Part shown: piece by piece, positions 4,540 to 64,000 of the stretch
How positions within the stretch are numbered: the stretch's first letter is position 1
Layout: each line of letters opens with the position of its first letter
Origin: Myxococcota bacterium
Lineage (GTDB): Bacteria > Myxococcota_A > Polyangia > Fen-1088
Length of the DNA stretch: 64,000 nt
Reading direction: 5' to 3'
NCBI GenBank assembly: GCA_025934105.1
Contig: JAICYS010000001.1
Coordinates: 15,324 to 79,323 of the forward strand
The notes under the pieces: model-generated
Databases searched by the model: none
The model's input: only the letters and a program-made list of their open reading frames with translations
Told to the model about the DNA's origin: nothing
Position numbers and translations under genes: made by a program

Positions 4540-4543
<4 letters not shown>
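2..4543 (+). CDS. Type I modular polyketide synthase, 5'-truncated by the window edge: (AT C-terminal part)-DH-ER-KR-ACP
   Basis: The frame is open from position 2 (AQVAGALSLDDA... is the stretch that follows GHSxGE in AT domains), so the listed start at 8 is only an internal GTG. Motifs seen: AT YASH (VDYASHCPQM, 281..292); DH HPLLG (788..802) plus LAHHLVNGRVVLPAAAY, YGAPF and LFDAALQ; ER LIHAAAGGVG (2738..2767); [10 protein letters not shown] (3356..3379), LDD, and Tyr in AGYAAGNAF (3782..3784); ACP GFDSL (Ser 4262..4264). An acidic docking-like tail precedes the TGA at 4541..4543. Confidence 0.93.
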
Positions 4544-11130
<6,587 letters not shown>

Positions 11131-11135
11131 GCTAG

Positions 11136-11954
11136 CTACGACTCGCAGGCGCGGCGATACATCGGCTCCCAGGTGTCGTCCCACTGGCGGACGCAGTCCT
11201 GGCGTGCCGTGGTGAAGCGGTCGAAGTCGCGGTTGAGGGCGTGGGTCCGCCCGACGTTGGTGACGTGCATCCAGGTGTCGAGCGCGTCGGCCAGCGTGAT
11301 CGGGCAGCCGAGCTGCTCGCCCAGCCGAACCATGAGCCGGGCCGCGGAGCGCCCGTAGGCGTCGAGCACGGCCAGGAACCGCGGCCCGCCGGTGTCGATG
11401 GCGCCGAAGTTCTGTTCGTACATCGCCCACGAGACCTGGGAGTGCTCCGCCTCTTCGGCCATGTGGTACAGGAAAATGTAGTAGGTCCCCGGGTGCTTCA
11501 TCCACCGGGGATCCCCGGCGTTCTCCATCACCAGGACCGACTGGACGCCGAAGGAGGCCTCGATGGCGGCCGCGACGAACGCCAGCTCCTCGGCCGCGGC
11601 GTCCATCCTGAGCAGCGACGTGTCGACGAGGTTCGGGATGCGGCCGAGGCACGGGTCGTGACGGTAGGCGCCCGAGCCGAGCGCGGTCTCGTTGACCACG
11701 TGGCAAGCGGCCGAATGGCGCGCCTCCTGGGTCAGGAATGCCTTCTCGTCGGTGACCGGCGCCTCGGACGGATGCTGGCGCCGCAGCGCGAGCAGCACCA
11801 TCTCGAAGTACTCCGCGAAGACGCTGAAGCTGAACATGCCCAGCGATTCGACCCGGCCCAGATCCGCCTCGAGCGCCGCGAACGTCTCCTTTCGCGCCGC
11901 GCCCAACACGGACGAGGGAACCTCCCGGATGCGCAGCTCCTTGAACTTCTTCAC
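11136..11954 (-). CDS. Putative diiron-carboxylate (ferritin-like / 'metal-dependent hydrolase'-type) protein, function unknown
   Basis: 272 aa when started at GTG 11954. That GTG overlaps the upstream TGA as GTGA and has GGGGAG 8 nt upstream. The track's 11993 start is also a GTG and would give a 43-nt overlap. The protein has a twofold E-x(29-36)-E-x-x-H pattern: E48 (FAEYFE) ... E77-A-R-H80 (H codon 11715..11717), and E132 (AIEASF) ... E168-A-E-H171 (H codon 11442..11444). LTQEARHSAACH and YHMAEEAEHSQVSWAMY resemble the signature helices of the Pfam 'Metal_hydrol' (PF10118-like) / diiron oxygenase families, as far as I recall them. Local GC looks slightly lower than in the PKS genes. Confidence 0.7.
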   Translation of the reverse strand: MKKFKELRIREVPSSVLGAARKETFAALEADLGRVESLGMFSFSVFAEYFEMVLLALRRQHPSEAPVTDEKAFLTQEARHSAACHVVNETALGSGAYRHDPCLGRIPNLVDTSLLRMDAAAEELAFVAAAIEASFGVQSVLVMENAGDPRWMKHPGTYYIFLYHMAEEAEHSQVSWAMYEQNFGAIDTGGPRFLAVLDAYGRSAARLMVRLGEQLGCPITLADALDTWMHVTNVGRTHALNRDFDRFTTARQDCVRQWDDTWEPMYRRACES

Positions 11955-14275
11955 GCGACGGTCTCCCCGTTCCAGTAACGCTCGCGCTGCCACGGGTAGG
12001 TGGGCAGATCGACGGGCCGCAGGCCCCGCGGGTACTGGCGCGCCCAGTCGATGCGGCAGCCGAGCGTGTAGAGACGCGCCATCGCGTCCAGCATCGCGTC
12101 GCGTGCCTCACCGCCGCCCTCGATGCTGGGGACGAAACCACCAGCCTTGCCCGGCGGCGCCAGCGCCGGCGCAATCGACAGGCCGGGGACAGACCGCGGG
12201 CTCACTTCCAAAAAGACGTCGTATCCTTGCTCGGCCGCGGCGGCCGCCGTCGGGTAGCTGGGAATGCGCGTGGCGGCGGGCGCGATCTCGCCGCGCGCGC
12301 AGACGATCCGGGCAGCCTGCTCCAGCGGCAAGGCGCCTGCCACGTGCGCGGCAGCGATCCGTCCGAAGCCGTCGCCGACGATGGCGTGCGGTTCGACGCC
12401 CCAGGCCCGCCAGAGCGAGGCCAGCGCCACCTGGAGAGAGAACAGGCAGTGGAGCTCGGCGTCTCGATCGTCGGCCGCCCCGGACGCGAGTTCCGCCAGC
12501 ACCGACGAGGCGCCCGCCTGCAAGAAGGCCGCGTCGCAGGCGGCGAGCGCCGCGCGGAACTCCGGTTCCACCTCCGCCAGCGCGCGCGCGCCGCCGGCGG
12601 ACCGTGGCCCCCGCGCCGGGAACGCGAACACCAGCCTGCGGCGAGAAGGCGCCACCCGCCCCGCCCTGACGCCCGGCCGGCCCTCGCCCCGCGCGCAGGC
12701 CGCCAGCTCCTCGCTCGCCTGGCGGGCGGAGCGCGCCACCAGCGCCAGCCGGAACTCGTGGTGAGAGCGGCGCACGTTGGCCGTGAAGCAGATCCGCCCC
12801 AGCTCACCGTCGGGCACCCCGCCGATTCGATCCGCGTAGCGGCCCGCGGCCGCCCGCAGCGCCGCCTCGCTCTTGGCCGAGATGGTCAACAGCCGCGGCC
12901 CGGCGGGCAGGATTGGCTCGTCCACCGACTTCGGCGCTTCCTCCAGCACGACGTGCGCGTTGGTCCCGTTCATCCCGAAGGCGCTCACCCCCGCGATGCG
13001 CGGCGCGCCGCCGCGCGCCCAGGGCCGACCGGTGAGCGGAATCTCGAACCGCGTCCTCTCGAAGGCGATGTTGGGGCTGAGGCGCTTGAAGTTGCGGTGG
13101 GGCGGAATGAAGCCCGCGTCCAGCGCCAGCACCGTCTTGATGATCCCGGCGATGCCCGAGGCTGTCTCCAGATGGCCGATGTTGGTCTTGATCGAGCCGA
13201 GCAGGCAGGGCGTGCCGCCGGGGGTCGGCGAGCCGAGCACCTCTTTCAACGCCTGGGCCTCGATGGCGTCGCTGAGCGCGGTGCCCGAGCCGTACGCCTC
13301 GACGTACGAGACCTGCGCCGGAGCCACCCGGGCCTGGGCCAGCGCCCGTCGCAAGACCGCCGCCTGCGCCACCGGGTTCGGGGCCTTGATCGACGCGCTG
13401 CCGCCGTTCTGGTTCACGGCGGCCCCGCGGACCACCGCGAGGATCCGATCGCCGGCGGCCTGAGCGTCCGACAGCCGCTTGAGGACCAGCGCGCCGCAGC
13501 CTTCGCTGCGGACGTATCCGTCGGCCGCGGCGTCGAACGTCTTGCACTGGAACGACGGCGAGACGATCCCGGACTTCGCGTACCCGTCATTCAGGTACGG
13601 CGACAGGTTCAACATGACCCCGGCCGCCAGGGCCATGTCGCTGGTCTGGAGCCGCAGGCTCTGGCAGGCCAGATCGACCGCCACCAGCGACGAGGCGCAG
13701 GCCGCCTCGACGGCGATGCAGGGGCCGCCCAGCTCCAGCGCGTACGACACGCGCCCGCAGGTGAAGCTCTTGCCGTTGCCCATCGCGAAGTGGAATGGGT
13801 CGCGCGCGCCGGCGGCGGCGGTCATGAATGCGTAGTCGCTGGACGAGATGCCCAGGAAGACCCCGGTCAGTGAGCGACGGACCGTCTCGATCGGCTGTCC
13901 CGCCCGCTCGAGCGCTTCGTGACACACCTCGAGCACCAGGCGCTGCTGGGGATCCATGGCCGCGGCCTCCTGCGCCGAGATCCCCCAGAAGCCGGCGTCG
14001 AACTGGTCGGCCCCGCGGATGAATCCGCCCCGATGACCCTGCCAGTCTCCCGGCCGATCGGGGGGCACCTCGCCGATCGCGTCGCGCCCGTCGACCAGCA
14101 GCTGCCACAGCTCTTCCGGACTGTCGGCGCCGGGGAAGCGGCAGGCCAGGCCGACGACGGCGATCGGCTCGTCGCGCGCCGCCTCCAGCGACTTCACCTT
14201 GGCTTCCAGCGACTCGATCGCCTTGAAGGCGCGACGCATGGCGGTCGTGGCGTCGGGTGTCGGCTTGTCAGGCAT
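11951..14275 (-). CDS. Stand-alone PKS-like protein: divergent KS (Cys-Tyr-His) plus eroded AT remnant; no ACP and no TE
   Basis: ATG at 14275 (MPDKPTPD...) overlaps the upstream stop by 8 nt (ATGCCTGA). Residues upstream of it in ORF 11951..14410 are an Arg-rich shadow. The docking coil AMRRAFKAIESLEAKVKSLEAARDEPIAVVGLACRFPG is present. KS residues: Cys in EAACASS (13697..13699); Tyr replaces His in EAYGSGTALSDAIE (13292..13294); the second His is kept in KTNIGHLE (13172..13174). AT remnant: ARGPRSAGGA in place of GQGxQWxGMG, GDGFGR in place of GHSxGE (12368..12376), and the YASH/HAFH segment is missing. The post-AT linker LPTYPWQRERYW is retained. Confidence 0.85.
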   Translation of the reverse strand: MPDKPTPDATTAMRRAFKAIESLEAKVKSLEAARDEPIAVVGLACRFPGADSPEELWQLLVDGRDAIGEVPPDRPGDWQGHRGGFIRGADQFDAGFWGISAQEAAAMDPQQRLVLEVCHEALERAGQPIETVRRSLTGVFLGISSSDYAFMTAAAGARDPFHFAMGNGKSFTCGRVSYALELGGPCIAVEAACASSLVAVDLACQSLRLQTSDMALAAGVMLNLSPYLNDGYAKSGIVSPSFQCKTFDAAADGYVRSEGCGALVLKRLSDAQAAGDRILAVVRGAAVNQNGGSASIKAPNPVAQAAVLRRALAQARVAPAQVSYVEAYGSGTALSDAIEAQALKEVLGSPTPGGTPCLLGSIKTNIGHLETASGIAGIIKTVLALDAGFIPPHRNFKRLSPNIAFERTRFEIPLTGRPWARGGAPRIAGVSAFGMNGTNAHVVLEEAPKSVDEPILPAGPRLLTISAKSEAALRAAAGRYADRIGGVPDGELGRICFTANVRRSHHEFRLALVARSARQASEELAACARGEGRPGVRAGRVAPSRRRLVFAFPARGPRSAGGARALAEVEPEFRAALAACDAAFLQAGASSVLAELASGAADDRDAELHCLFSLQVALASLWRAWGVEPHAIVGDGFGRIAAAHVAGALPLEQAARIVCARGEIAPAATRIPSYPTAAAAAEQGYDVFLEVSPRSVPGLSIAPALAPPGKAGGFVPSIEGGGEARDAMLDAMARLYTLGCRIDWARQYPRGLRPVDLPTYPWQRERYWNGETVA
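12185..12645 (-). other. Eroded acyltransferase remnant (about 150 aa, nucleophile Ser absent)
   Basis: Runs from RRLVFAFPARGPRS (about 12601..12645) to VFLEVSPRSVPGL (about 12185..12225). G634-D635-G636 (12368..12376) sits where GHS is expected. Confidence 0.8.
12935..14175 (-). other. KS domain of the orphan protein, with HGTGT His replaced by Tyr
   Basis: Runs from EPIAVVGLACRFPG (about 14135..14175) to GTNAHVVLEEAP (about 12935..12975). It also diverges at NQNGGSASIKAPN (canonical NQDGRSxGLTAPN) and has a shortened N-terminal loop (DRPGDWQGHRGGFI). Confidence 0.8.
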
Positions 14276-17200
14276 GGTCTTCTTCTGTTCGATCCAGGCG
14301 ATCCAGCTTGGCCAGCAGCGCGGCTTCGATCTGGTCGTCCGGCAGCAGGTCCGCCTCCGTCGGCGGCTCGGCCGGCGCGGCCGCCGCCTGGTTCGGCGGC
14401 GCCTCCTCATCGACGGGCGCTCCCATCAGCTTGGCGAGATAGGGCACCAGCTCTTCGATCGATCGGCTGGCCCACAACACGGTCGAGGGAAGGCGCATTC
14501 CGAAGCGGGCCTCCAGCCGATCCCGCAGCTCGAGGTCCATCAGCGAGTCGAAACCAAGAGCGTTCAGGGGGGCGGCCGCGTCGACGGCCGCGGCCGGCAG
14601 CCGCAACAACCCGGCGATCTCCGCCTTCACCTCGGTCTGCAGCCGGTGGCGTCGCTCGGACGGCGCGAGCGCCGCGAGCTCGTCCCGCAGCCGAGCAGCG
14701 GGCGCAGCCTGGGGCGCCCTCTCGCTCAGCAGCCGCGACAGCAGCGGCCAAGCGGAGGGCAGGCCGGCGGCGTCGCCCGGGCCGCGGAGCTCGAGGCGCA
14801 TCACCGCGATCTGGGGGGCGGAGAGCTCCAGCACCCGGTCCAGCGCCGCCATCGCGTCGGCGGCCGCCAGGCCCGCGTCCCAGCCGATGCTGATCGCCGG
14901 CAGCCCCGCGGCGGCCCGCAGATGGGCCAGGCCGTCCAGGAAGGCACTCGCCGCCGCGTCGCTGCCGTGCCCCGGCGATCCCAGCACCGCGCCGCTCGAC
15001 GAGAACATCACGAAAAAATCGAGCGAAGAGGTCCCGCGGGTCCGGGTGTGCAGGTTCCAGGCGCCCCGAACCTTGGGCGCCATCACCCGCTCGAGCCCGC
15101 CGTCATCGATGGCGCCGGCCGCGTGGACGATCCCGCGCAACGCCGGCATCTCCGTCCGGATCCGCTCGAGCAGCCCGGCGACCTCCCGCGGCTCCGCGAC
15201 GTCGCACCGGGCGACGACCACCTCGACCCCGCCCGCGGCGAGCTCGCCGATCGCCTGGCCGGCCTCGGGCGGCGGATCCCGGCGGTCGGCGAGGACCAGG
15301 TGCCGCGCCCCTTTCGCGACCAGCCAGCGGGCGGTTTCCAGGCCCAGCCGACCCAGTCCGCCGGTCACCAGGTAGGTGTCGCCGCCGATGGCGGGCGCCG
15401 TCTCGGCCGCGGCGATCGGCGTCTCGGGGTCGTCCATCGTGACGACGGTCAGCGGCCCGCGCTGGCCGGCGGCCGCGCCAAGCTGCGCTTCGAGCTGGGC
15501 GATCGGCACGCCGCGGACGTCGACGGCGCCGCCGAGAGCGGCGAGGTGCCCTTCGGCCCCCTGGATCGCGGCCGCCAAGCCAGCCGGCGCCTCGACGGCC
15601 AGCGCCCGCAGATCGGCGGTCAGCCGCCAGACGTTCGGCGGCGTCGGCGTGGCGCTACTCGGTCCCGCCGAGACCCAGCGTCCGAGCGGAGCCAGCAGCG
15701 CCGACCAGTTCGGGTCGGACAAGTCGTCCCAGGCGGCGCCGGTCCCGATGACGACGTCGTAGCGCCGGCCCCCGTTGGCGGCCAGCGCGTCGGCGGGCGA
15801 GCTGTCCGGCGGGATGGTGCGGAACCGCTCTCCCGGTGCGCCGCCGAGGGCCACCACGGACGCGCCGGCGGCGGCCGCGATCCGGGCCGCGGCGCGTCCC
15901 TGCGGACAGGCACCGTCGCTGATGAACACCGCTTCGCGCCCGACACGCGCAAGCCCGACGACCGCGTGGTGCGCCGCCGCGACGATCGGCAGCGTGGCGG
16001 CCGCGAGCTGCGCGCCCAGAGCGGGCGGCAAGGGGATCACGGCACCGGCGTCGATCGCGACGTGGGTGGCCGGCTCTTGCGCCACCAGGGCCACCACCTC
16101 GTCTCCGACGGCGAACCGAGCGGCGGCCGTCGGCCCGACGGCCGTGATGCGCCCCGCGCAGGCGGCGGGGCGTCCCGGCGTGCGGTCGAGCGTCGCCGCC
16201 GAGACCGCGAGCTCCACTTCTCCGGCGGCGGGCTCGCGGCGCGCGAAGGCCCGCAGGCCGTCGCCGGCGAGATGAAACGAGCGCCCGCGGGCGGGACGCG
16301 GTCGCCGATCGCCGGCGCGCGCCCGGGTCAAGCGGGCGACCCGCCGTTCGCGCCCGCGCAGCGCGATCTGGTTCTCGTCCAGGTCCGAGCGGAGCTCGTC
16401 CGCCAGGGCCGCCAGCGCGTCGGCGTCGGGCGAGGCGGGCAGGTCGACGCACGCGCACCGAAGCTCCGGGTGCTCGAGCGCAATCGTCCGCCCCAGCCCC
16501 CAGAGCGCGGCCAACGCCGGCGCGACCGGCCCGCCACCGGCGGGCTGCGCGCCGCGCGTGACCAGCCAGAGGCGCGGCGGTCGGGCCAGCTTCGCGGCGG
16601 CCACCGTCTCGACGATCGCGAGCACCCCAGCCCAGGTCTCGACGGCGCCGTCGGCGATCGCTTCCGCGCCGACGTCGGGCGCCAGATAGACAATGCCGCC
16701 GACGTCCGGGTCGGCTGACGCGGAGAGCCGGCGCACCGCCTGGGCCACGTCGGGCGAGAAGGCCAGCCGGTGGCCCGCCTCCTCGACGGGCTGGCGCAGC
16801 GCACCGGCCAGAGCTTCGTCCCCCAGCGCGACCCAGGCGTTTCCAGCGCGCGCGGGCGGCGCGGGCAGGCTCTGCGGCTCCCAGTCGACGGCGAACATCC
16901 AGTCGTCGACCAGGCGGCGCGACGGGCCTACCCGCTGGAACTGGAGGTCGCGCAGCTCGACGAAGACCTGGCCGTCCTCGCCCAGTAGCAACACGTCACC
17001 GCGCGGCCGATCGCCGCGCGCGCTCTGGTCGACAATGCACGCGTGAGCCGAGAGCGCGCCTTCGGGACGGGCCCCGACCACCACCGACCCGATCGCCACC
17101 GGCACCAGCAGCCCCGGCGCGACCGTCGAGATGGCCGCGCCGCTCGCCTGGAAGCAGGCGTCGAGCAAGGTCGGATCGACCTCGCCGGCCATGGCGCGCG

Positions 17201-20200
17201 CCGTGGGATCGGCCGGGCGGAGGCGCGCCAGCACCTCCCCCGCTCCCCCGACCACCCGGTCCAGGCGGCGAAGCCGCGGGCCGAGATCGATCCCGCCCCG
17301 CCGGATCGCTTCGTAGAACTCGTCGACCCCGACGGGCCGCGGGCAGCGCGACGCGATCGCGGCGGGCGGCTGGGCCGAGGCGGCGGCCGGCTCGCGCGCG
17401 GCGCGCAAGTCCCCGGACGCGTGGACGCTCCAGCCGGCGGCCGAGGGGCTGGCGATGCGAAACGATCCCGCCCCGCCGGCGCGTGGCGTGAACAGCAGCT
17501 GCGCCATCCGGGTCCCCTGCGCGGGCAGCTCCAGCAGCTGCTCCAGGCGAACGTTTTCGACCACGCATCTCGCGCCCCGGCCGAAGATCGCGCGGCCCGC
17601 CTCGAGCGCCATCTCGAGGTAGGCCGCCGGGGTGACGATGGCTCTGCCCGCTACCCGGTGATCGCCCAGATACGGAGACACGGCCGGCGACAGCTCGGCT
17701 TCCCAGACCCGCGTGCCGTCGGGCAGAGTCAATCCGTCGCCGGCCAGCAGCCCCTGTCCGAAGGCCATCGCCGGCCCGCGCCTTCCGTCGGTGCGGGCCG
17801 GCCAGTAGGCCTCGCGCTGCCAGGCGTAGGTGGGCAGCGACACCACGTTCCCCGCCGCCGTGAACAGCCGTTCCCACTCGACCGAGCGTCCGAGCGCGTA
17901 GAGCGACCCCAGCGTGTCCAGCAACGAGCGGCGCTCGTCCTCTTCGCGCCGTGTCGAGCCGAGGGCGGCCCCCGCCATCCCGATCGCCGACAGCGTGCTC
18001 TCGATCGACGGCGCCAGCACCGGCTGGGGGCTGATCTCCAGAAAGATCGCGTGCCCCTCACGCATGAGGCCCTCCAGCGACGGGGGGGACGGCGCCGGTT
18101 GGCGCGGGTTGGTGGCCGACCAGTACGCGGCCCCCATGAGCTCGCCCGGGATCGGCTCCGCCTTGGCCGTCGAATAGATCGGCACCCCCGCCGCGCGCGG
18201 CCGGATCGCCGCCAGCAACGCCTGAAGCTCTGCGCCGAGCGGCGGCTTCCGGCTGCGCAGCACGATGGCGCGCGCGGCGTCGGCCAGGTCCAGCGCACCC
18301 GCCACGTGCGCGGCCGCGACCTCGCCCAGGCCGTCGCCGACCACGGCGTCCGGCTCGATCCCCCACGACCGCCAGAGCGCGGCCAGCGAGACCTGCATCG
18401 CGAAGATCAGCGGGACGGCCACCTCCTCCGTCCACCGCTGCGCGGCCGCGTCCGAGGTCAACATGTCGGCGGCCGACCACCCCGTCACGGCTTCGAGGGC
18501 GGCGTCGCACGCCGCCAGCGAGTCGCGAAACACCTTCTCCGAAAGCAGTCCCCGGCCCATCCCGACCCACTGCGACCCCGGACCGGAGAACACGAAGACG
18601 ATCCGCTCCGCCGCTCCCGCCCGGAGCTCCGGGCGCGCGCCACCGACTTTCGCGGGCGCTTGCTCCTCACCCGCGGCCACCGCGCGCAACCCGTCGACTA
18701 GCTCGCGCCGGGTCGCGCCCACCACCAGGCGGCGAAACCGATGGTGGCTCCGGCGTACCGCCGCGGTGTACGCGACATCGGCCAGCGGGTGCGTGCCCTC
18801 GGCCAAGAACGCCGACCACCGCTCGGCGAGGGCCCGAAGGTCGGCCGGGCTCCGCGCAGAGATCGGCAGCACCATCGGCCGGCCGTCACCGTCGGCGGCC
18901 GCCTGTTCACCGGCGGCCGCCGGCGACGGCACCGCCTCCAACACGGCGTGCGCGTTCGTCCCCGACCAGCCGAACGAGCTCACGCCCGCGATCCAGGGCT
19001 TGCCGTCCGCCGGCCAGGCCAGCGGCTCGCGCGAGACGACGAACGGGGTGTTCTCCAGCGCGATGTGCGGGTTCAGCCGGCGGAAGTTGATCTGCGGCGG
19101 GATGATCCCGCGCGACAACGACAGCGCCGCCTTGATGAGACCGGCCACCCCGGCGGCGCCCTCCGTGTGCCCGAGGTTGGCCTTGAGCGATCCCAGGACG
19201 CAGCGGTCGCCCGCCCCGCGGCCGCGGCCCAGGACCTCCTTGAGGGCCTCGACCTCGATCGGATCGCCCAGCGCGGTTCCCGTCCCGTGGGCCTCGACGT
19301 AGCCGACCGCGGCGGGCGGGACGCCGCCGGCCGCCAGGGCGCGCTCGATCACCTCGCGCTGGGCAGAGCCGGCCGGCGCGGTGAGCCCGTTCGATCGCCC
19401 GTCGTGATTGACCGCGGTCCCGCGCACGATCGCGATCACCCGATCGCGGCTGGCGAGGGCGTCGCCCAAACGCTTGAGGACGACGACGCCGCACCCCTCA
19501 CCGCGGGCGATGCCGTCGGCGCGCGCGTCGAACACCTTGCAACGCCCGTCGCCCGCCAGGAGCTGCATCTCCAGCATCACCCGCATGACCTCGGGCGACA
19601 GCACCAGGTTGACGCCCCCCACGACGGCCAGCGCGGACTCCCGGCGCCGCAGACTCTCGCAGGCCAGGTGAACCGCCACCAGCGACGACGAGCAGGCGGT
19701 GTCGACCACCACGCTCGGGCCGTGCAGATCGAAAATGTAGGACACCCGGCCCGCCAGCATGTTGTTCGACACGCCGGTCCCGGTGTGAGACCCGACGGCC
19801 TGCGGATCGCGCGCGCAGAGCGTCGCGTACTCGCCCCCGCCGCAGGCGCCGATGAAGACGCCGGTCGCCGTCCCGGCCACCGCCTCCAGCGGCAGACCCG
19901 CGTCCTCCAACGCCTCCCAGATGCCCTCCAGGATCAGCCGCTGCTGAGGATCGATCTGGACGGCCTCGCGCGGCGAGATCCCGAACACCGCCGGCTCGAA
20001 CTGGTCGACGCCCTCGATGAAGCCACCCCAGCCGGTCGGCGCCAGGTCGGGGCTCCGCTCGAGCAGCGCTTCGGCGTCCCAGCGTGACTTCGGGACGCGC
20101 GTGATCCCGTCGACGCCGTCGAGGAGCGCGCGCCAGAGCCCGTCGGGCGAGTCGGCGCCCGCGAAGCGGCACGACATCCCCACGATCGCGATCGGCTCGG

Positions 20201-20306
20201 GCGGCTCGCGCAGGAGCTCGGCCAGCAGGCCGCGCTTTTCGGGGCCCAGGGACGCGATCAGCTTCGACAGCTTGTCGGCCGTGGAGGCTCCACCATCCGC
20301 GCTCAT
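14268..20306 (-). CDS. Type I modular PKS, module M8: KS-AT(dead, truncated)-DH(variant)-ER(dead)-KR(dead)-ACP
   Basis: ATG at 20306 (MSADGGASTADKLSKL...) overlaps the upstream TGA (ATGA), with GGAGGAG about 7 nt upstream. The KS is intact (TACSSS, EAHGTGT, NLGHTE). In the AT, GPGSQWVGMG is present, but GHSxG reads GDGLGE (18330..18338) and about 85 aa including the YASH/HAFH region are missing. DH reads LGDHRVAGRAIVTPAAY, DLGPRL instead of YGPxF, and LLDACFQ. The ER-like stretch has VFISDGACPQGRAAARIAAAAG where LIHAAAGGVG is expected. In the KR, TGGLGRLG is present but GHGSDAAASAF replaces GQxNYAAANAF (Asp codon 14958..14960 at the catalytic Tyr position). ACP is LGFDSL (Ser 14544..14546). 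Confidence 0.88.
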   Translation of the reverse strand: MSADGGASTADKLSKLIASLGPEKRGLLAELLREPPEPIAIVGMSCRFAGADSPDGLWRALLDGVDGITRVPKSRWDAEALLERSPDLAPTGWGGFIEGVDQFEPAVFGISPREAVQIDPQQRLILEGIWEALEDAGLPLEAVAGTATGVFIGACGGGEYATLCARDPQAVGSHTGTGVSNNMLAGRVSYIFDLHGPSVVVDTACSSSLVAVHLACESLRRRESALAVVGGVNLVLSPEVMRVMLEMQLLAGDGRCKVFDARADGIARGEGCGVVVLKRLGDALASRDRVIAIVRGTAVNHDGRSNGLTAPAGSAQREVIERALAAGGVPPAAVGYVEAHGTGTALGDPIEVEALKEVLGRGRGAGDRCVLGSLKANLGHTEGAAGVAGLIKAALSLSRGIIPPQINFRRLNPHIALENTPFVVSREPLAWPADGKPWIAGVSSFGWSGTNAHAVLEAVPSPAAAGEQAAADGDGRPMVLPISARSPADLRALAERWSAFLAEGTHPLADVAYTAAVRRSHHRFRRLVVGATRRELVDGLRAVAAGEEQAPAKVGGARPELRAGAAERIVFVFSGPGSQWVGMGRGLLSEKVFRDSLAACDAALEAVTGWSAADMLTSDAAAQRWTEEVAVPLIFAMQVSLAALWRSWGIEPDAVVGDGLGEVAAAHVAGALDLADAARAIVLRSRKPPLGAELQALLAAIRPRAAGVPIYSTAKAEPIPGELMGAAYWSATNPRQPAPSPPSLEGLMREGHAIFLEISPQPVLAPSIESTLSAIGMAGAALGSTRREEDERRSLLDTLGSLYALGRSVEWERLFTAAGNVVSLPTYAWQREAYWPARTDGRRGPAMAFGQGLLAGDGLTLPDGTRVWEAELSPAVSPYLGDHRVAGRAIVTPAAYLEMALEAGRAIFGRGARCVVENVRLEQLLELPAQGTRMAQLLFTPRAGGAGSFRIASPSAAGWSVHASGDLRAAREPAAASAQPPAAIASRCPRPVGVDEFYEAIRRGGIDLGPRLRRLDRVVGGAGEVLARLRPADPTARAMAGEVDPTLLDACFQASGAAISTVAPGLLVPVAIGSVVVGARPEGALSAHACIVDQSARGDRPRGDVLLLGEDGQVFVELRDLQFQRVGPSRRLVDDWMFAVDWEPQSLPAPPARAGNAWVALGDEALAGALRQPVEEAGHRLAFSPDVAQAVRRLSASADPDVGGIVYLAPDVGAEAIADGAVETWAGVLAIVETVAAAKLARPPRLWLVTRGAQPAGGGPVAPALAALWGLGRTIALEHPELRCACVDLPASPDADALAALADELRSDLDENQIALRGRERRVARLTRARAGDRRPRPARGRSFHLAGDGLRAFARREPAAGEVELAVSAATLDRTPGRPAACAGRITAVGPTAAARFAVGDEVVALVAQEPATHVAIDAGAVIPLPPALGAQLAAATLPIVAAAHHAVVGLARVGREAVFISDGACPQGRAAARIAAAAGASVVALGGAPGERFRTIPPDSSPADALAANGGRRYDVVIGTGAAWDDLSDPNWSALLAPLGRWVSAGPSSATPTPPNVWRLTADLRALAVEAPAGLAAAIQGAEGHLAALGGAVDVRGVPIAQLEAQLGAAAGQRGPLTVVTMDDPETPIAAAETAPAIGGDTYLVTGGLGRLGLETARWLVAKGARHLVLADRRDPPPEAGQAIGELAAGGVEVVVARCDVAEPREVAGLLERIRTEMPALRGIVHAAGAIDDGGLERVMAPKVRGAWNLHTRTRGTSSLDFFVMFSSSGAVLGSPGHGSDAAASAFLDGLAHLRAAAGLPAISIGWDAGLAAADAMAALDRVLELSAPQIAVMRLELRGPGDAAGLPSAWPLLSRLLSERAPQAAPAARLRDELAALAPSERRHRLQTEVKAEIAGLLRLPAAAVDAAAPLNALGFDSLMDLELRDRLEARFGMRLPSTVLWASRSIEELVPYLAKLMGAPVDEEAPPNQAAAAPAEPPTEADLLPDDQIEAALLAKLDRLDRTEEDHA
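14880..15378 (-). other. M8 KR catalytic subdomain with Tyr->Asp and Asn->Ser
   Basis: [12 protein letters not shown] sits at about 15345..15378. SSSGAVLGSPGHGSDAAASAFLDGLAH was checked on the DNA (14935..14990). The segment between HAAG and PKV is also shortened (AIDDGGLERVMAPKV). Confidence 0.75.
15440..16290 (-). other. M8 ER-like region lacking the NADPH-binding motif
   Basis: The MDR-like layout is retained (GEVELAVSAA..., AATLPIVAAAHHAVVGLARV). LxHxxxGGVG is replaced by FISDGACPQG (about 15850..15935), and there is no EIGKRD-like segment. Confidence 0.7.
18000..18610 (-). other. M8 AT remnant (about 200 aa; GDG in place of GHS; small subdomain deleted)
   Basis: Runs from RIVFVFSGPGSQWVGMG (about 18550..18600) to GHAIFLEISPQPVL (about 18000..18060). 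D658 sits at 18333..18335 and G659 (the Ser position) at 18330..18332. Confidence 0.8.

Positions 20307-32279: not shown

Positions 32280-32283
<4 letters not shown>
25873..32283 (-). CDS. Type I modular PKS, module M6: KS(NRPS-accepting type)-AT(methylmalonyl-type)-DH-ER-KR-ACP
   Basis: ATG at 32283 overlaps the upstream TGA (ATGA), with GGAGAGGG upstream. The N-terminus is short and has no coil (MSGGGQPRIAVVGMSGRFPGA). The KS Cys sits in QTACSTS (31759..31761), the style usual for KSs fed by a PCP, followed by ETHGTGT and SVGHLE. Motifs seen: AT GQGSQWIGMG, RVDVIQP, GHSLGE, YASHS; DH HPWLAQ plus LQEHRVQGVPVVAGAVW; ER LIHAASTGVG (27633..27686, one-Gly variant) with IGKRDYY; [28 protein letters not shown]; ACP LGLDSL. 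Confidence 0.92.
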
Positions 32284-41779
<9,496 letters not shown>

Positions 41780-47221: not shown

Positions 47222-62049
<14,828 letters not shown>

Positions 62050-62253: not shown

Positions 62254-63321
62254 ATGCGGTCGGGTCTGGCCATGGGGTTGATGATTTACGGGGCGGACGG
62301 CTACACCGGCGAGCTGATCGCGCGCCTGGCCGCCGCGCGCGGCATGCCGGTCGTGCTCGCCAGTCGAGACGGCGAACCCGTCGCGGCGCTGGCCAAGGAG
62401 CTGGGCCTTCCGCATCGGGTGTTCTCCCTCGACGATCCGGCCGTCGTCGCCGACTCCATTCGCGGCACCAAGGCCGTTCTCAATTGCGCCGGACCGTTTT
62501 CCCGAACGGCGGGTCCGATGGTCGACGCCTGTTTGCGCGAGCGCGTCCACTATGTGGACATCACCGGTGAGGTCAGCGTCCTCGAAGGGCTCGCCAAGCG
62601 CGACGCCGAGGCGCGGGCTTCGAACATCACGCTGCTTCCGGGCGCCGGGTTCGAGCTGGTCCCCTTTGACTGCCTGGCGGCGTACGTCGCGCGCAAGCTG
62701 CCGTCGGCGACGCACCTGGCGGTTGGGCTGCTGCCGCAGACCACCGTGTCGCGGGGCTCGTACTTGACGATGGTCGAGATGGCCGAGCGTGGCAGCCTCA
62801 TCCGGCGCGACGGCGAGCTGGTGCGCGTCGCCAGCCGCGGGCGCTCGCGCCGGATCGACTTCGGGGAGGGGCCGCGAAAATCGATCACCATCCCGTTCGG
62901 CGACGTCGCGACCGCGTTCCACACCACCGGGATCCGGAACATCGAGGTGTTCGTGGCGCTTCCGTTCGGCAAGCGCCTGGGAATGCGGTTGTCGCGATGG
63001 CTGGTCCCGAAGTTGACGGCCTCCGCCCGGTGGAAGCGCTGGCTTCACAGGCAGATCCTGAAGCGTCCGCGCGGCCCCTCGCCCGACGAGCGCGCCAGGC
63101 GGGTCAGCCATGTCTGGGCCGAGGCGAGCGACGGGACGGGCGCGACCGTCCGGGCCCGGCTGAAAACGCCCGAAGCGTATGAGTTCACGTCCTGGGTGGC
63201 GCTGGACCTGGGGAAGAGCGCGGCCCTGGACGCGTTGCCGGTTGGATTTCAGACCCCCGGGCGGGTCTGCGACATCGACTATATGTTGCGCTTTCCGGGC
63301 GTCACCGTCGCGGACTGCTGA
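62254..63321 (+). CDS. Saccharopine dehydrogenase-like NAD(P)-binding oxidoreductase
   Basis: The N-terminal Rossmann motif IYGADGYTGELIARLAA, together with NCAGPF, HYVDITGE and LLPGAGFELVP, is typical of the Sacchrp_dh_NADP family. The start is ambiguous: in-frame ATGs lie at 62254, 62272 and 62281. The 62281 start (MIYGADGYTG) fits best with the Rossmann motif at the extreme N-terminus and with the AT-rich hexamers upstream. Confidence 0.75.
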   Translation: MRSGLAMGLMIYGADGYTGELIARLAAARGMPVVLASRDGEPVAALAKELGLPHRVFSLDDPAVVADSIRGTKAVLNCAGPFSRTAGPMVDACLRERVHYVDITGEVSVLEGLAKRDAEARASNITLLPGAGFELVPFDCLAAYVARKLPSATHLAVGLLPQTTVSRGSYLTMVEMAERGSLIRRDGELVRVASRGRSRRIDFGEGPRKSITIPFGDVATAFHTTGIRNIEVFVALPFGKRLGMRLSRWLVPKLTASARWKRWLHRQILKRPRGPSPDERARRVSHVWAEASDGTGATVRARLKTPEAYEFTSWVALDLGKSAALDALPVGFQTPGRVCDIDYMLRFPGVTVADC

Positions 63322-63372: not shown

Positions 63373-64000
63373 TCAGAGCTGGCCGATCACGGCCTCGAGC
63401 TCGGCCGCTATCGCGCGCGTGAACTCCGGCCGGCCGGCATGAATGAAGAAGTGATCGCCGGGAATCATCGTCTTCGAGAATCTCGCGTTCGTCTCCAAGC
63501 GCCAGGCGAGCAGGTGCGCTTCGGTCACCGAGTCGTCGTGCACGCCGCCGTAGACGGACAGTCCGCACGACAGAGGCTGCCGAGCCGAATAGCGGTAGGT
63601 CTCGTGCAGCCGGAAATCGGCTCGCATGACCGGCAACAGGAGCTGCAGAAGCTCGCGCTCGCGCAGGATCTCGGCGGGAATGGCGTTGTACTTCGTTCGA
63701 AGGGCGTCGATGAAATCGTCGTCCGGCAGCGCGTGGATCGACGATCCGGGGACGGCGACGGAGGGGGCGACCCGAGCGGCCGCGATCAGGTGGCGGGGGC
63801 CGGCCTTTCCCGTGTGACCCAGCTCGTGCGCCAGCTCGTACGCGACGAGCGCCCCCAGGCTATGCCCCAAGAACACGTACGGAACCGTCAACTCTGGCGC
63901 AAGGCCAACCGCCGCCTCGGAGATCACCTGCCGCAGGTTGGTGGGCAGCGGTTCGCCCATGCGGGTCGAGTGGCCCGGCAGCTGGACCGGACAGACCTCG
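63373..64000 (-). CDS. Type II (editing) thioesterase, alpha/beta hydrolase; 5' end lies beyond the window
   Basis: Motifs seen: GHSLGALVAYELAHEL (GxSxG nucleophile elbow) and a C-terminal IPGDHFF (catalytic His region). The frame stays open upstream of the listed Met to the window edge and reads EVCPVQLPGHSTR, the conserved QLPGR-type block of TEII proteins. The true N-terminus is therefore outside the window. Stop at 63373..63375. Confidence 0.8.
   Translation of the reverse strand, partial: EVCPVQLPGHSTRMGEPLPTNLRQVISEAAVGLAPELTVPYVFLGHSLGALVAYELAHELGHTGKAGPRHLIAAARVAPSVAVPGSSIHALPDDDFIDALRTKYNAIPAEILRERELLQLLLPVMRADFRLHETYRYSARQPLSCGLSVYGGVHDDSVTEAHLLAWRLETNARFSKTMIPGDHFFIHAGRPEFTRAIAAELEAVIGQL

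Follow-up and report, generated by a model that had tools for sequence, protein, structure and literature searches.

A PF10118 gene where two polyketide operons converge

The DNA described here is a window of 64,000 nucleotides (nt) from a Myxococcota bacterium (class Polyangia; contig JAICYS010000001.1), in which two convergent operons encode polyketide synthases (PKSs), the minus-strand one together with a nonribosomal peptide synthetase (NRPS) module. The final gene of the minus-strand operon, hereafter the target gene, lies directly behind an orphan ketosynthase (KS) gene and encodes a small protein of family PF10118 with a predicted ferritin-like dimetal site. An earlier note on this DNA had read the product as a diiron-signature protein that is co-translated with the orphan KS and stands where a thioesterase (TE) would normally be found. 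We followed up these claims computationally, starting from the features at the junction, given here with their window coordinates and strand:

11136..11954, minus: target gene, encoding a PF10118-family protein of 272 amino acids (aa) with a predicted ferritin-like dimetal site
11951..11954, minus: GTGA overlap of 4 nt, in which the target GTG (11954-11952) overlies the TGA (11953-11951) of the KS-AT0 gene
11963..11968, minus: Shine-Dalgarno-like GGGGAG, with its GGAG core 8 nt before the target GTG
11951..14275, minus: orphan PKS gene (KS-AT0), starting with the ATG at 14275 and encoding 774 aa, with a coiled-coil/docking N-terminus, KS, KS-AT linker, acyltransferase (AT) remnant and post-AT linker
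13292..13294, minus: Tyr codon in EAYGSGT, at the site of the first catalytic His (HGTGT) of the orphan KS

Read from the GTG at 11954, the minus strand gives a product of 272 aa with E48, E77-A-R-H80, E132 and E168-A-E-H171, at the spacings of 29 and 36 residues already reported in the earlier note. A scripted count finds exactly two ExxH motifs in this protein, at residues 77 and 168. The GC content at third codon positions is 0.94 in this frame, and the whole window is 73.5% GC. A longer open reading frame (ORF) starting at a GTG at 11993 is also present; we favour the start at 11954 because every homologue opens with M/L-KKFKEL. The minus-strand sequence at the junction, GGGGAGACCGTCGCGTGAAG, contains both the GTGA overlap and the GGAG core 8 nt upstream, just as had been claimed. 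The coupling to the orphan KS gene is real: the 4-nt overlap is conserved in two orthologous metagenomic loci, L001 and L002, where it reads TTGA. In fact, 4-nt overlaps (GTGA or ATGA) join successive genes of both operons, at 11951-11954, 4540-4543 and 20303-20306, and at 14268-14275 the start codon (ATG, 14275-14273) stands 2 nt away from the TGA of the upstream gene (14270-14268). At its other end, the target stop codon is separated by only 5 nt from the stop codon of the convergent PKS gene (11128-11130; region 11128-11138), and a search for a terminator or hairpin between the two genes found none. The same tight stop-to-stop spacing occurs in L001 and L002.

A predicted ferritin-like fold with a candidate three-histidine site

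The target has a single Pfam match at an E-value of 1 or below, and this is to PF10118 (Metal_hydrol), one of the families named in the earlier note. The match scores 35.2 bits against a gathering cut-off of 33.2 (E = 1.4e-8); it spans target residues 71-183 and covers only profile positions 63-171. Family membership is also seen in the relatives: all 15 of those we aligned match PF10118, with a best E-value of 5.7e-44, and the five close homologues all bear a precomputed PF10118 label. Pfam describes the family as a "predicted metal-dependent hydrolase" of unknown function; neither the target nor a Pseudomonas-type homologue falls into any NCBIfam family, and we found no functional description in the literature on PF10118, COG3687, Metal_hydrol or the InterPro and PIRSF identifiers. 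Within this family, the target belongs to a very divergent and very rare branch. Sequences at 62% identity or more number five among 5.8 billion clusters, 14 matches at an E-value of 1e-3 or below came out when 1.84 billion representatives were searched exhaustively with a profile, word-indexed homologue searches yielded 5-6 proteins only, and a tblastn search of plasmids with the target gave no match.

What do these proteins have in common? In an alignment of 15 homologues (18-70% identity), 11 columns are invariant: E51, Q76, E77, H80, E132, Y163, H164, E167, E168, E170 and H171. All but one of them are E, H or Q within motif regions, and E48, N88, Y159, W258, D259 and P264 are near-invariant. 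The relatives thereby share the motifs QExxH, YHxxEExEH and a C-terminal WDxxWEP. This conservation is what makes the ligand pattern real, because a twofold E-x(25-40)-ExxH arises in 2.8% of shuffles of the target protein and the motif alone would be merely suggestive. The six ligands proposed in the earlier note thus hold up well, five being invariant and E48 nearly so, but the set was incomplete, since H164, Q76 and E167 are invariant too.

To place these residues, we relied on an AlphaFold (AF2) model built from the 15-sequence alignment (pLDDT 92.8, pTM 0.90); an earlier AF2 run with the five close homologues had reached a pLDDT of 45 and was discarded. The model is nearly all-helical, with seven helices and one short beta-hairpin (residues 97-107), and every candidate ligand group falls mid-helix on one of four long helices:

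residues 34-60: helix carrying E48 and E51
residues 70-92: helix carrying Q76, E77 and H80
residues 121-143: helix carrying E132
residues 155-183: helix carrying H164 to H171

The candidate ligands are E48, E77, H80, E132, H164, E168 and H171, of which H164 is a third histidine, one turn ahead of E168. Judging from their helix positions, they would converge on one site as in ferritin-like diiron bundles. The central placement of the ligands along the four long helices, in a model of high confidence, agrees with the structural expectation of the earlier note. Q76 and E167 are candidate second-sphere residues, which may act as hydrogen-bond partners of the histidines. Two family-specific features stand apart from the site: the hairpin, located between helices B and C (window about 11634-11666, minus strand), bears a conserved GR[IV] motif, and the last helix bears the near-invariant WDxxWEP at residues 258-264 (window about 11163-11183, minus strand). 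These might serve as a lid or as a contact for the carrier protein.

When the model is compared with the Protein Data Bank (PDB) by Foldseek, nearly all of the top 50 matches are ferritin-like diiron or Mn/Fe proteins. The best is the mouse ribonucleotide reductase R2 subunit (RNR R2; 1xsm, prob 0.99, TMq 0.46), followed by aldehyde-deformylating oxygenase (ADO), stearoyl-acyl carrier protein (ACP) desaturase and R2lox. Together with the conserved ligands and the four long helices, these matches support the ferritin-like dimetal claim of the earlier note, and on this prediction the target belongs with the ferritin-like dimetal-carboxylate proteins. The note had also allowed for a heme-oxygenase-like diiron fold. 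We rejected this option: HrmI (9n1a, 9n1x) and HamA (9vwb) reach a TMq of only 0.16-0.19 at a prob of 0.15 or less, compared to up to 0.46 and up to 0.99 for the ferritin-like diiron oxidases.

Where the earlier note erred is in the type of site. It had taken the ligands for the classic set of two His and four carboxylates; with H164 as a seventh candidate ligand, the architecture, as read from the conserved residues, is instead of a predicted 3-His/4-carboxylate type like that of AurF and CylC/NocO, and not the 2-His type of desaturases and ADO. According to a 2025 study, AurF combines a DExxH motif with 3-His/4-carboxylate coordination, and 2-His/4-carboxylate sites prevail among the diiron enzymes that oxidise C-H bonds (PMC12101540). 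The CylC/NocO halogenases have nine conserved residues, seven of which lie within QExxH and HxxDExxH, the other two being the Glu of helices A and C, and a 3-His/3-Glu site is predicted for them; NocO acts on acyl-ACP and requires ferredoxin, ferredoxin reductase and NADPH, and the CylC-type family is reported to be mainly cyanobacterial (PMC12101540).

Likeness to NocO is a matter of motifs, seen with NocO peptides that we decoded from published mutagenesis primers. The primer-derived NocO segment YQERQHIHAFSQINY compares with TQEARHSAACHVVNE of the target, and HYHFLDEAFHTT with LYHMAEEAEHSQ, so that QEARH-x6-VN and YHMAEEAEHS of the target mirror QERQH-x6-IN and YHFLDEAFHT of NocO. Both proteins thus fit QExxH-x6-[VI]N and YHxx[DE]EAxH[ST], with three histidines and a predicted ferritin-like diiron site. 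Compared by motif description, eight of the nine CylC/NocO signature residues are identical in the target and the ninth, a D, is replaced by the E167 that is invariant among the PF10118 relatives. The proteins nevertheless differ in size and spacing: His-tagged NocO is 51.2 kDa and 123 residues separate the Glu of helices B and C (E129-E252), whereas the target has 272 aa and 55 residues between them. A search with the concatenated NocO peptides gave no NocO match.

The other known diiron enzymes resemble the target in different respects. AurF and CmlI resemble it in the 3-His/4-carboxylate ligand plan of their four-helix bundle (E, ExxH, E, HxxxExxH); in the target, however, Q76 stands where they have an Asp hydrogen-bonded to a ligand His, there is no evident amine substrate, and neither the target nor any of the 15 relatives matches PF11583 (AurF), at an E-value of 1 or below for the target. 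Acyl-ACP desaturases, ADO, RNR R2 and R2lox share the ferritin-like bundle and the twofold E...ExxH, and desaturases likewise use acyl-ACP, but their sites are of the 2-His/4-carboxylate type, their TM values are 0.3-0.46 and they have no sequence similarity to the target. LynB7, BarH and PtmU3 are diiron oxygenases whose genes, like that of the target, lie at the end of hybrid PKS-NRPS clusters, and LynB7 performs a terminal oxidative decarboxylation on a TE-released acid. In contrast to the target, LynB7 is described as a putative metallo-amidohydrolase similar to PtmU3, with a His/Asp ligand set, and this different fold rules out LynB7 and BarH as analogues.

Relatives in acyl-carrier cassettes and the assembly line around the target

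The neighbourhood of the target is conserved in its close relatives. In the soil metagenome locus L001, where the orthologue is 85% identical, the order of KS-AT0, target gene and convergent KS-AT-DH-ER-KR-ACP gene is kept; L002 and the P0004 contig show the same arrangement as far as each of them reaches. Further away, a relative at 26% identity (P0007, E = 9e-26) sits directly behind a PKS gene that ends in KR-ACP-TE. Still other distant relatives share 20-32% identity and were found in Pseudomonas-type, enterobacterial and low-GC organisms. In 13 distant loci (L003, L005-L011, L017, L018 and L020-L022; five of them on metagenome contigs), the PF10118 gene is accompanied by some or all of a small ACP, a FabF-like KS, a MaoC/HadAB-like dehydratase and a FabG-like reductase, usually with an acyl-ACP-desaturase-like protein and a flavin reductase in addition. 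The order of these genes varies among the loci and yet the set is retained, which argues that they are functionally linked. A flavin reductase alongside a second diiron-like protein points to redox chemistry on acyl-ACP rather than hydrolysis. The L003 cassette spans positions 5225-10921 of its locus and is adjoined by a LuxR-family regulator; that of L017 is adjoined by a DUF1702 protein and a flavin-halogenase-like protein. To our knowledge, such a PF10118/ACP/KS/desaturase-like cassette does not correspond to a described pathway. Compared to these typical members, which travel with type II ACP/KS cassettes, the target is unusual in sitting within a modular PKS-NRPS, whose remaining parts are as follows:

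63373..63960, minus: type II thioesterase gene, ahead of the loading module, matching positions 41-224 of the 226 in Pfam Thioesterase
62254-63321, plus: gene for a saccharopine-dehydrogenase-like NAD(P)-binding protein, which with the type II thioesterase gene flanks the start of the minus-strand operon
minus-strand operon: loading unit, AT-ACP
minus-strand operon: modules 1-2, each KS-AT-DH-ER-KR-ACP
minus-strand operon: modules 3-4, each KS-AT-DH-KR-ACP
32280..36500, minus: module 5 (NRPS), Cy-A-Ox-PCP, azole-forming, C-terminal to KS-AT-DH-KR-ACP
minus-strand operon: module 6, KS-AT-DH-ER-KR-ACP
minus-strand operon: module 7, KS-AT-DH-KR-ACP
14268..20306, minus: module 8 PKS gene, KS-AT0-DH-KR-ACP, preceding the orphan KS gene
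17898-18596, minus: module 8 AT, without the active-site Ser (GDGLGE for GHSxGE) and shortened by about 80 internal residues (profile positions 119-198)
4540..11130, plus: convergent PKS gene, KS-AT-DH-ER-KR-ACP, without TE

The assembly line begins in an unusual way. The first PKS protein opens with about 250 residues in which there is no KS and no more than a remnant of the KS-AT linker (61300-62049, minus strand), followed by a loading module in which the AT has GQSIGE, with Gln for the His of GHSxG, and then an ACP (60337-61281, minus strand). The type II thioesterase ORF is 195 aa as listed, and its true start is uncertain. Several modules are fully reducing (DH-ER-KR) and give saturated chain segments. 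Module 5 has a nitroreductase-type oxidase inserted in its A domain and the Cy motif DLLTVD, and is predicted from its domains to put a thiazole or oxazole mid-chain. The plus-strand operon reads ...AT-DH-ER-KR-ACP, then KS-AT-DH-ER-KR-ACP, and within the window neither of the two convergent operons ends in an in-line TE domain.

The end of the minus-strand operon is equally unusual. The AT of module 8 is presumably inactive, and the AT remnant of the orphan protein consists of only the first ~120 residues, serine-less, with GDGFG replacing GHSxG. Both of the final KS units of this operon thus carry dead ATs, so that module 8 needs trans-loading or extends no chain. The orphan KS-AT0 protein has no ACP. 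Since the operon ends in this ACP-less KS, the chain probably goes on to an ACP elsewhere, most simply to those of the convergent PKS genes, and the last gene of the operon does not equal the last step of the assembly line. The orphan KS itself keeps its Cys and second His, EAACASS standing for DTACSSS, whereas its first catalytic His is replaced by Tyr. We considered whether it could be a conserved non-condensing KS0; this is ruled out by the L001 orthologue (73% identical), which retains the Cys-His-His triad in canonical DTACSSS, HGSGT and NIGH motifs. The His-to-Tyr change is thus particular to the copy in the window. It may represent a recent loss of decarboxylative condensation in this strain.

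Possible reactions, and what they would mean

The reading that we favour, at what we judge to be about an even chance, is that the target is a dimetal enzyme which depends on O2 and a reductant to functionalise an unactivated C-H bond of a thioester-tethered chain. In this scheme, the 4-nt overlap would ensure that a small soluble ferritin-like dimetal oxidase or oxygenase is produced in fixed proportion with the orphan KS-AT0. Its reduced dimetal centre, most likely diiron, would activate O2, a ferredoxin or flavin reductase of the host supplying the electrons. An unactivated C-H would then be hydroxylated or desaturated, halogenation being possible as well, on one of the saturated segments of the polyketide-thiazole chain, at a stage when the chain is still thioester-bound to a carrier protein or KS. 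CylC/NocO enzymes act on ACP-tethered alkyl chains with an external reductase system, and by analogy we propose the same for the target. It is most likely a tailoring enzyme and not a surrogate thioesterase.

Several points weigh against this reading. The family is called a hydrolase in Pfam, and our literature search found no PF10118 member with a published function or structure. The Foldseek matches are weak, all with E-values of 0.09 or worse and TM of 0.46 or less. A PDB sequence search with the target protein gave only chance-level matches, to the metallo-beta-lactamase VIM (E about 1), the same search with the 15-sequence profile gave none, and hhalign of the target family against the neighbouring desaturase-like family returned a non-significant probability of 0.8%. 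No reductase or ferredoxin gene was seen within the 64-kb window, which is itself part of a 111.6-kb contig. Finally, the position of the gene says little on when in the pathway its product acts.

Could the enzyme be a halogenase of the CylC/NocO type, chlorinating or brominating an unactivated carbon of an ACP-tethered chain? The motif likeness described above would favour this, all the more because the shared residues include the Gln of QExxH that sets the halogenases apart from the DExxH of AurF, and because the extended local motifs agree; the acyl-ACP context of the relatives would also fit. However, the Gln is invariant in all 15 PF10118 sequences and may be a family trait rather than a marker of halogenation, the invariant E167 departs from the published D, NocO (about 51 kDa when His-tagged) is much larger with its helix-B and helix-C Glu much further apart, and the likeness to the CylC family is one of motifs. 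We thus consider a halogenase unlikely. A little less likely again is the off-loading role suggested in the earlier note, in which the dimetal enzyme would release or terminate the chain of a TE-less line, for example by decarboxylation or deformylation and perhaps on a KS-held chain. Such a role would fit the lack of a TE domain at the ends of both operons, the place of the target at their meeting point and its coupling to an ACP-less KS, the Tyr that this KS has for the decarboxylation His, the presence of ADO among the fold matches, and the Pseudomonas-type cassettes, in which we saw no dedicated TE, the sole candidate being a weak TesB-like ORF nearby in L003. Yet the wider comparison does not support the claim. 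The operon end lacks an ACP and implies one downstream, most simply in the convergent PKS genes; the cluster encodes a type II TE; P0007 follows a PKS that already ends in TE, so that TE absence is not a consistent feature; and the distant relatives belong to ACP/KS cassettes. The nearly all-helical model also differs from the alpha/beta-hydrolase fold, with its Ser-His-Asp triad, of a thioesterase. In addition, the Cys-His-His of the L001 orthologue speaks against a general role of the KS as a non-condensing holder; the substrates of known terminal decarboxylases and deformylases are free acids or aldehydes, whereas the line lacks an R domain that could produce an aldehyde; and a release enzyme may lie on the about 47 kb of contig outside the window.

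Hydrolysis and N-oxygenation have still less in their favour. As a true metal-dependent hydrolase, the target would use a mono- or dinuclear site to cleave a thioester or another bond without O2, in agreement with the Pfam/COG name and the missing in-line TE. We find this improbable: the name is a prediction only, the protein has no HExxH zincin motif, its conserved residues and predicted fold fit O2-activating ferritin-like proteins, and the flavin reductase and second desaturase-like diiron protein found with its relatives point to redox chemistry. An AurF/CmlI-like N-oxygenase acting on an amine of the starter unit or product appears very improbable, even though a 3-His/4-carboxylate site with HxxEExxH is most typical of N-oxygenases, given the lack of a PF11583 match, the second-sphere Q instead of D, and the fatty-acyl cassettes of the relatives. 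Moreover, the loading module is AT-ACP and the sole amino acid module forms an azole, so that no free amine is evident.

C-H functionalisation of a tethered chain thus remains the reading we prefer, and it invites a wider one that is possible but doubtful: PF10118 as a whole could be a large, unrecognised sister group of AurF and CylC that works on carrier-tethered acyl chains. At this locus, the reaction would then be new to modular PKSs, either an on-line halogenation or desaturation of an unactivated carbon, or an oxidative step by which the chain is released or handed over between the convergent halves of a TE-less assembly line.

Both the Pfam family, as an uncharacterised entry, and the ferritin-like diiron superfamily were already known. 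What is new is that a sizeable family labelled as hydrolase can be re-read as a ferritin-like, probably O2-activating dimetal family of the AurF/CylC 3-His type, that this re-reading is tied to ACP/KS systems, and that a very rare branch of the family lies in a modular PKS-NRPS beside two dead-AT units. If true, this would correct a misleading annotation of PF10118 and enlarge, by a new clade, the set of diiron enzymes acting on unactivated C-H bonds of tethered chains; such enzymes are in demand as biocatalysts, selective halogenation being one of their uses. It would also provide a handle on an unusual PKS-NRPS, in which the last two minus-strand KS units have dead ATs and no in-line TE is seen in the window.

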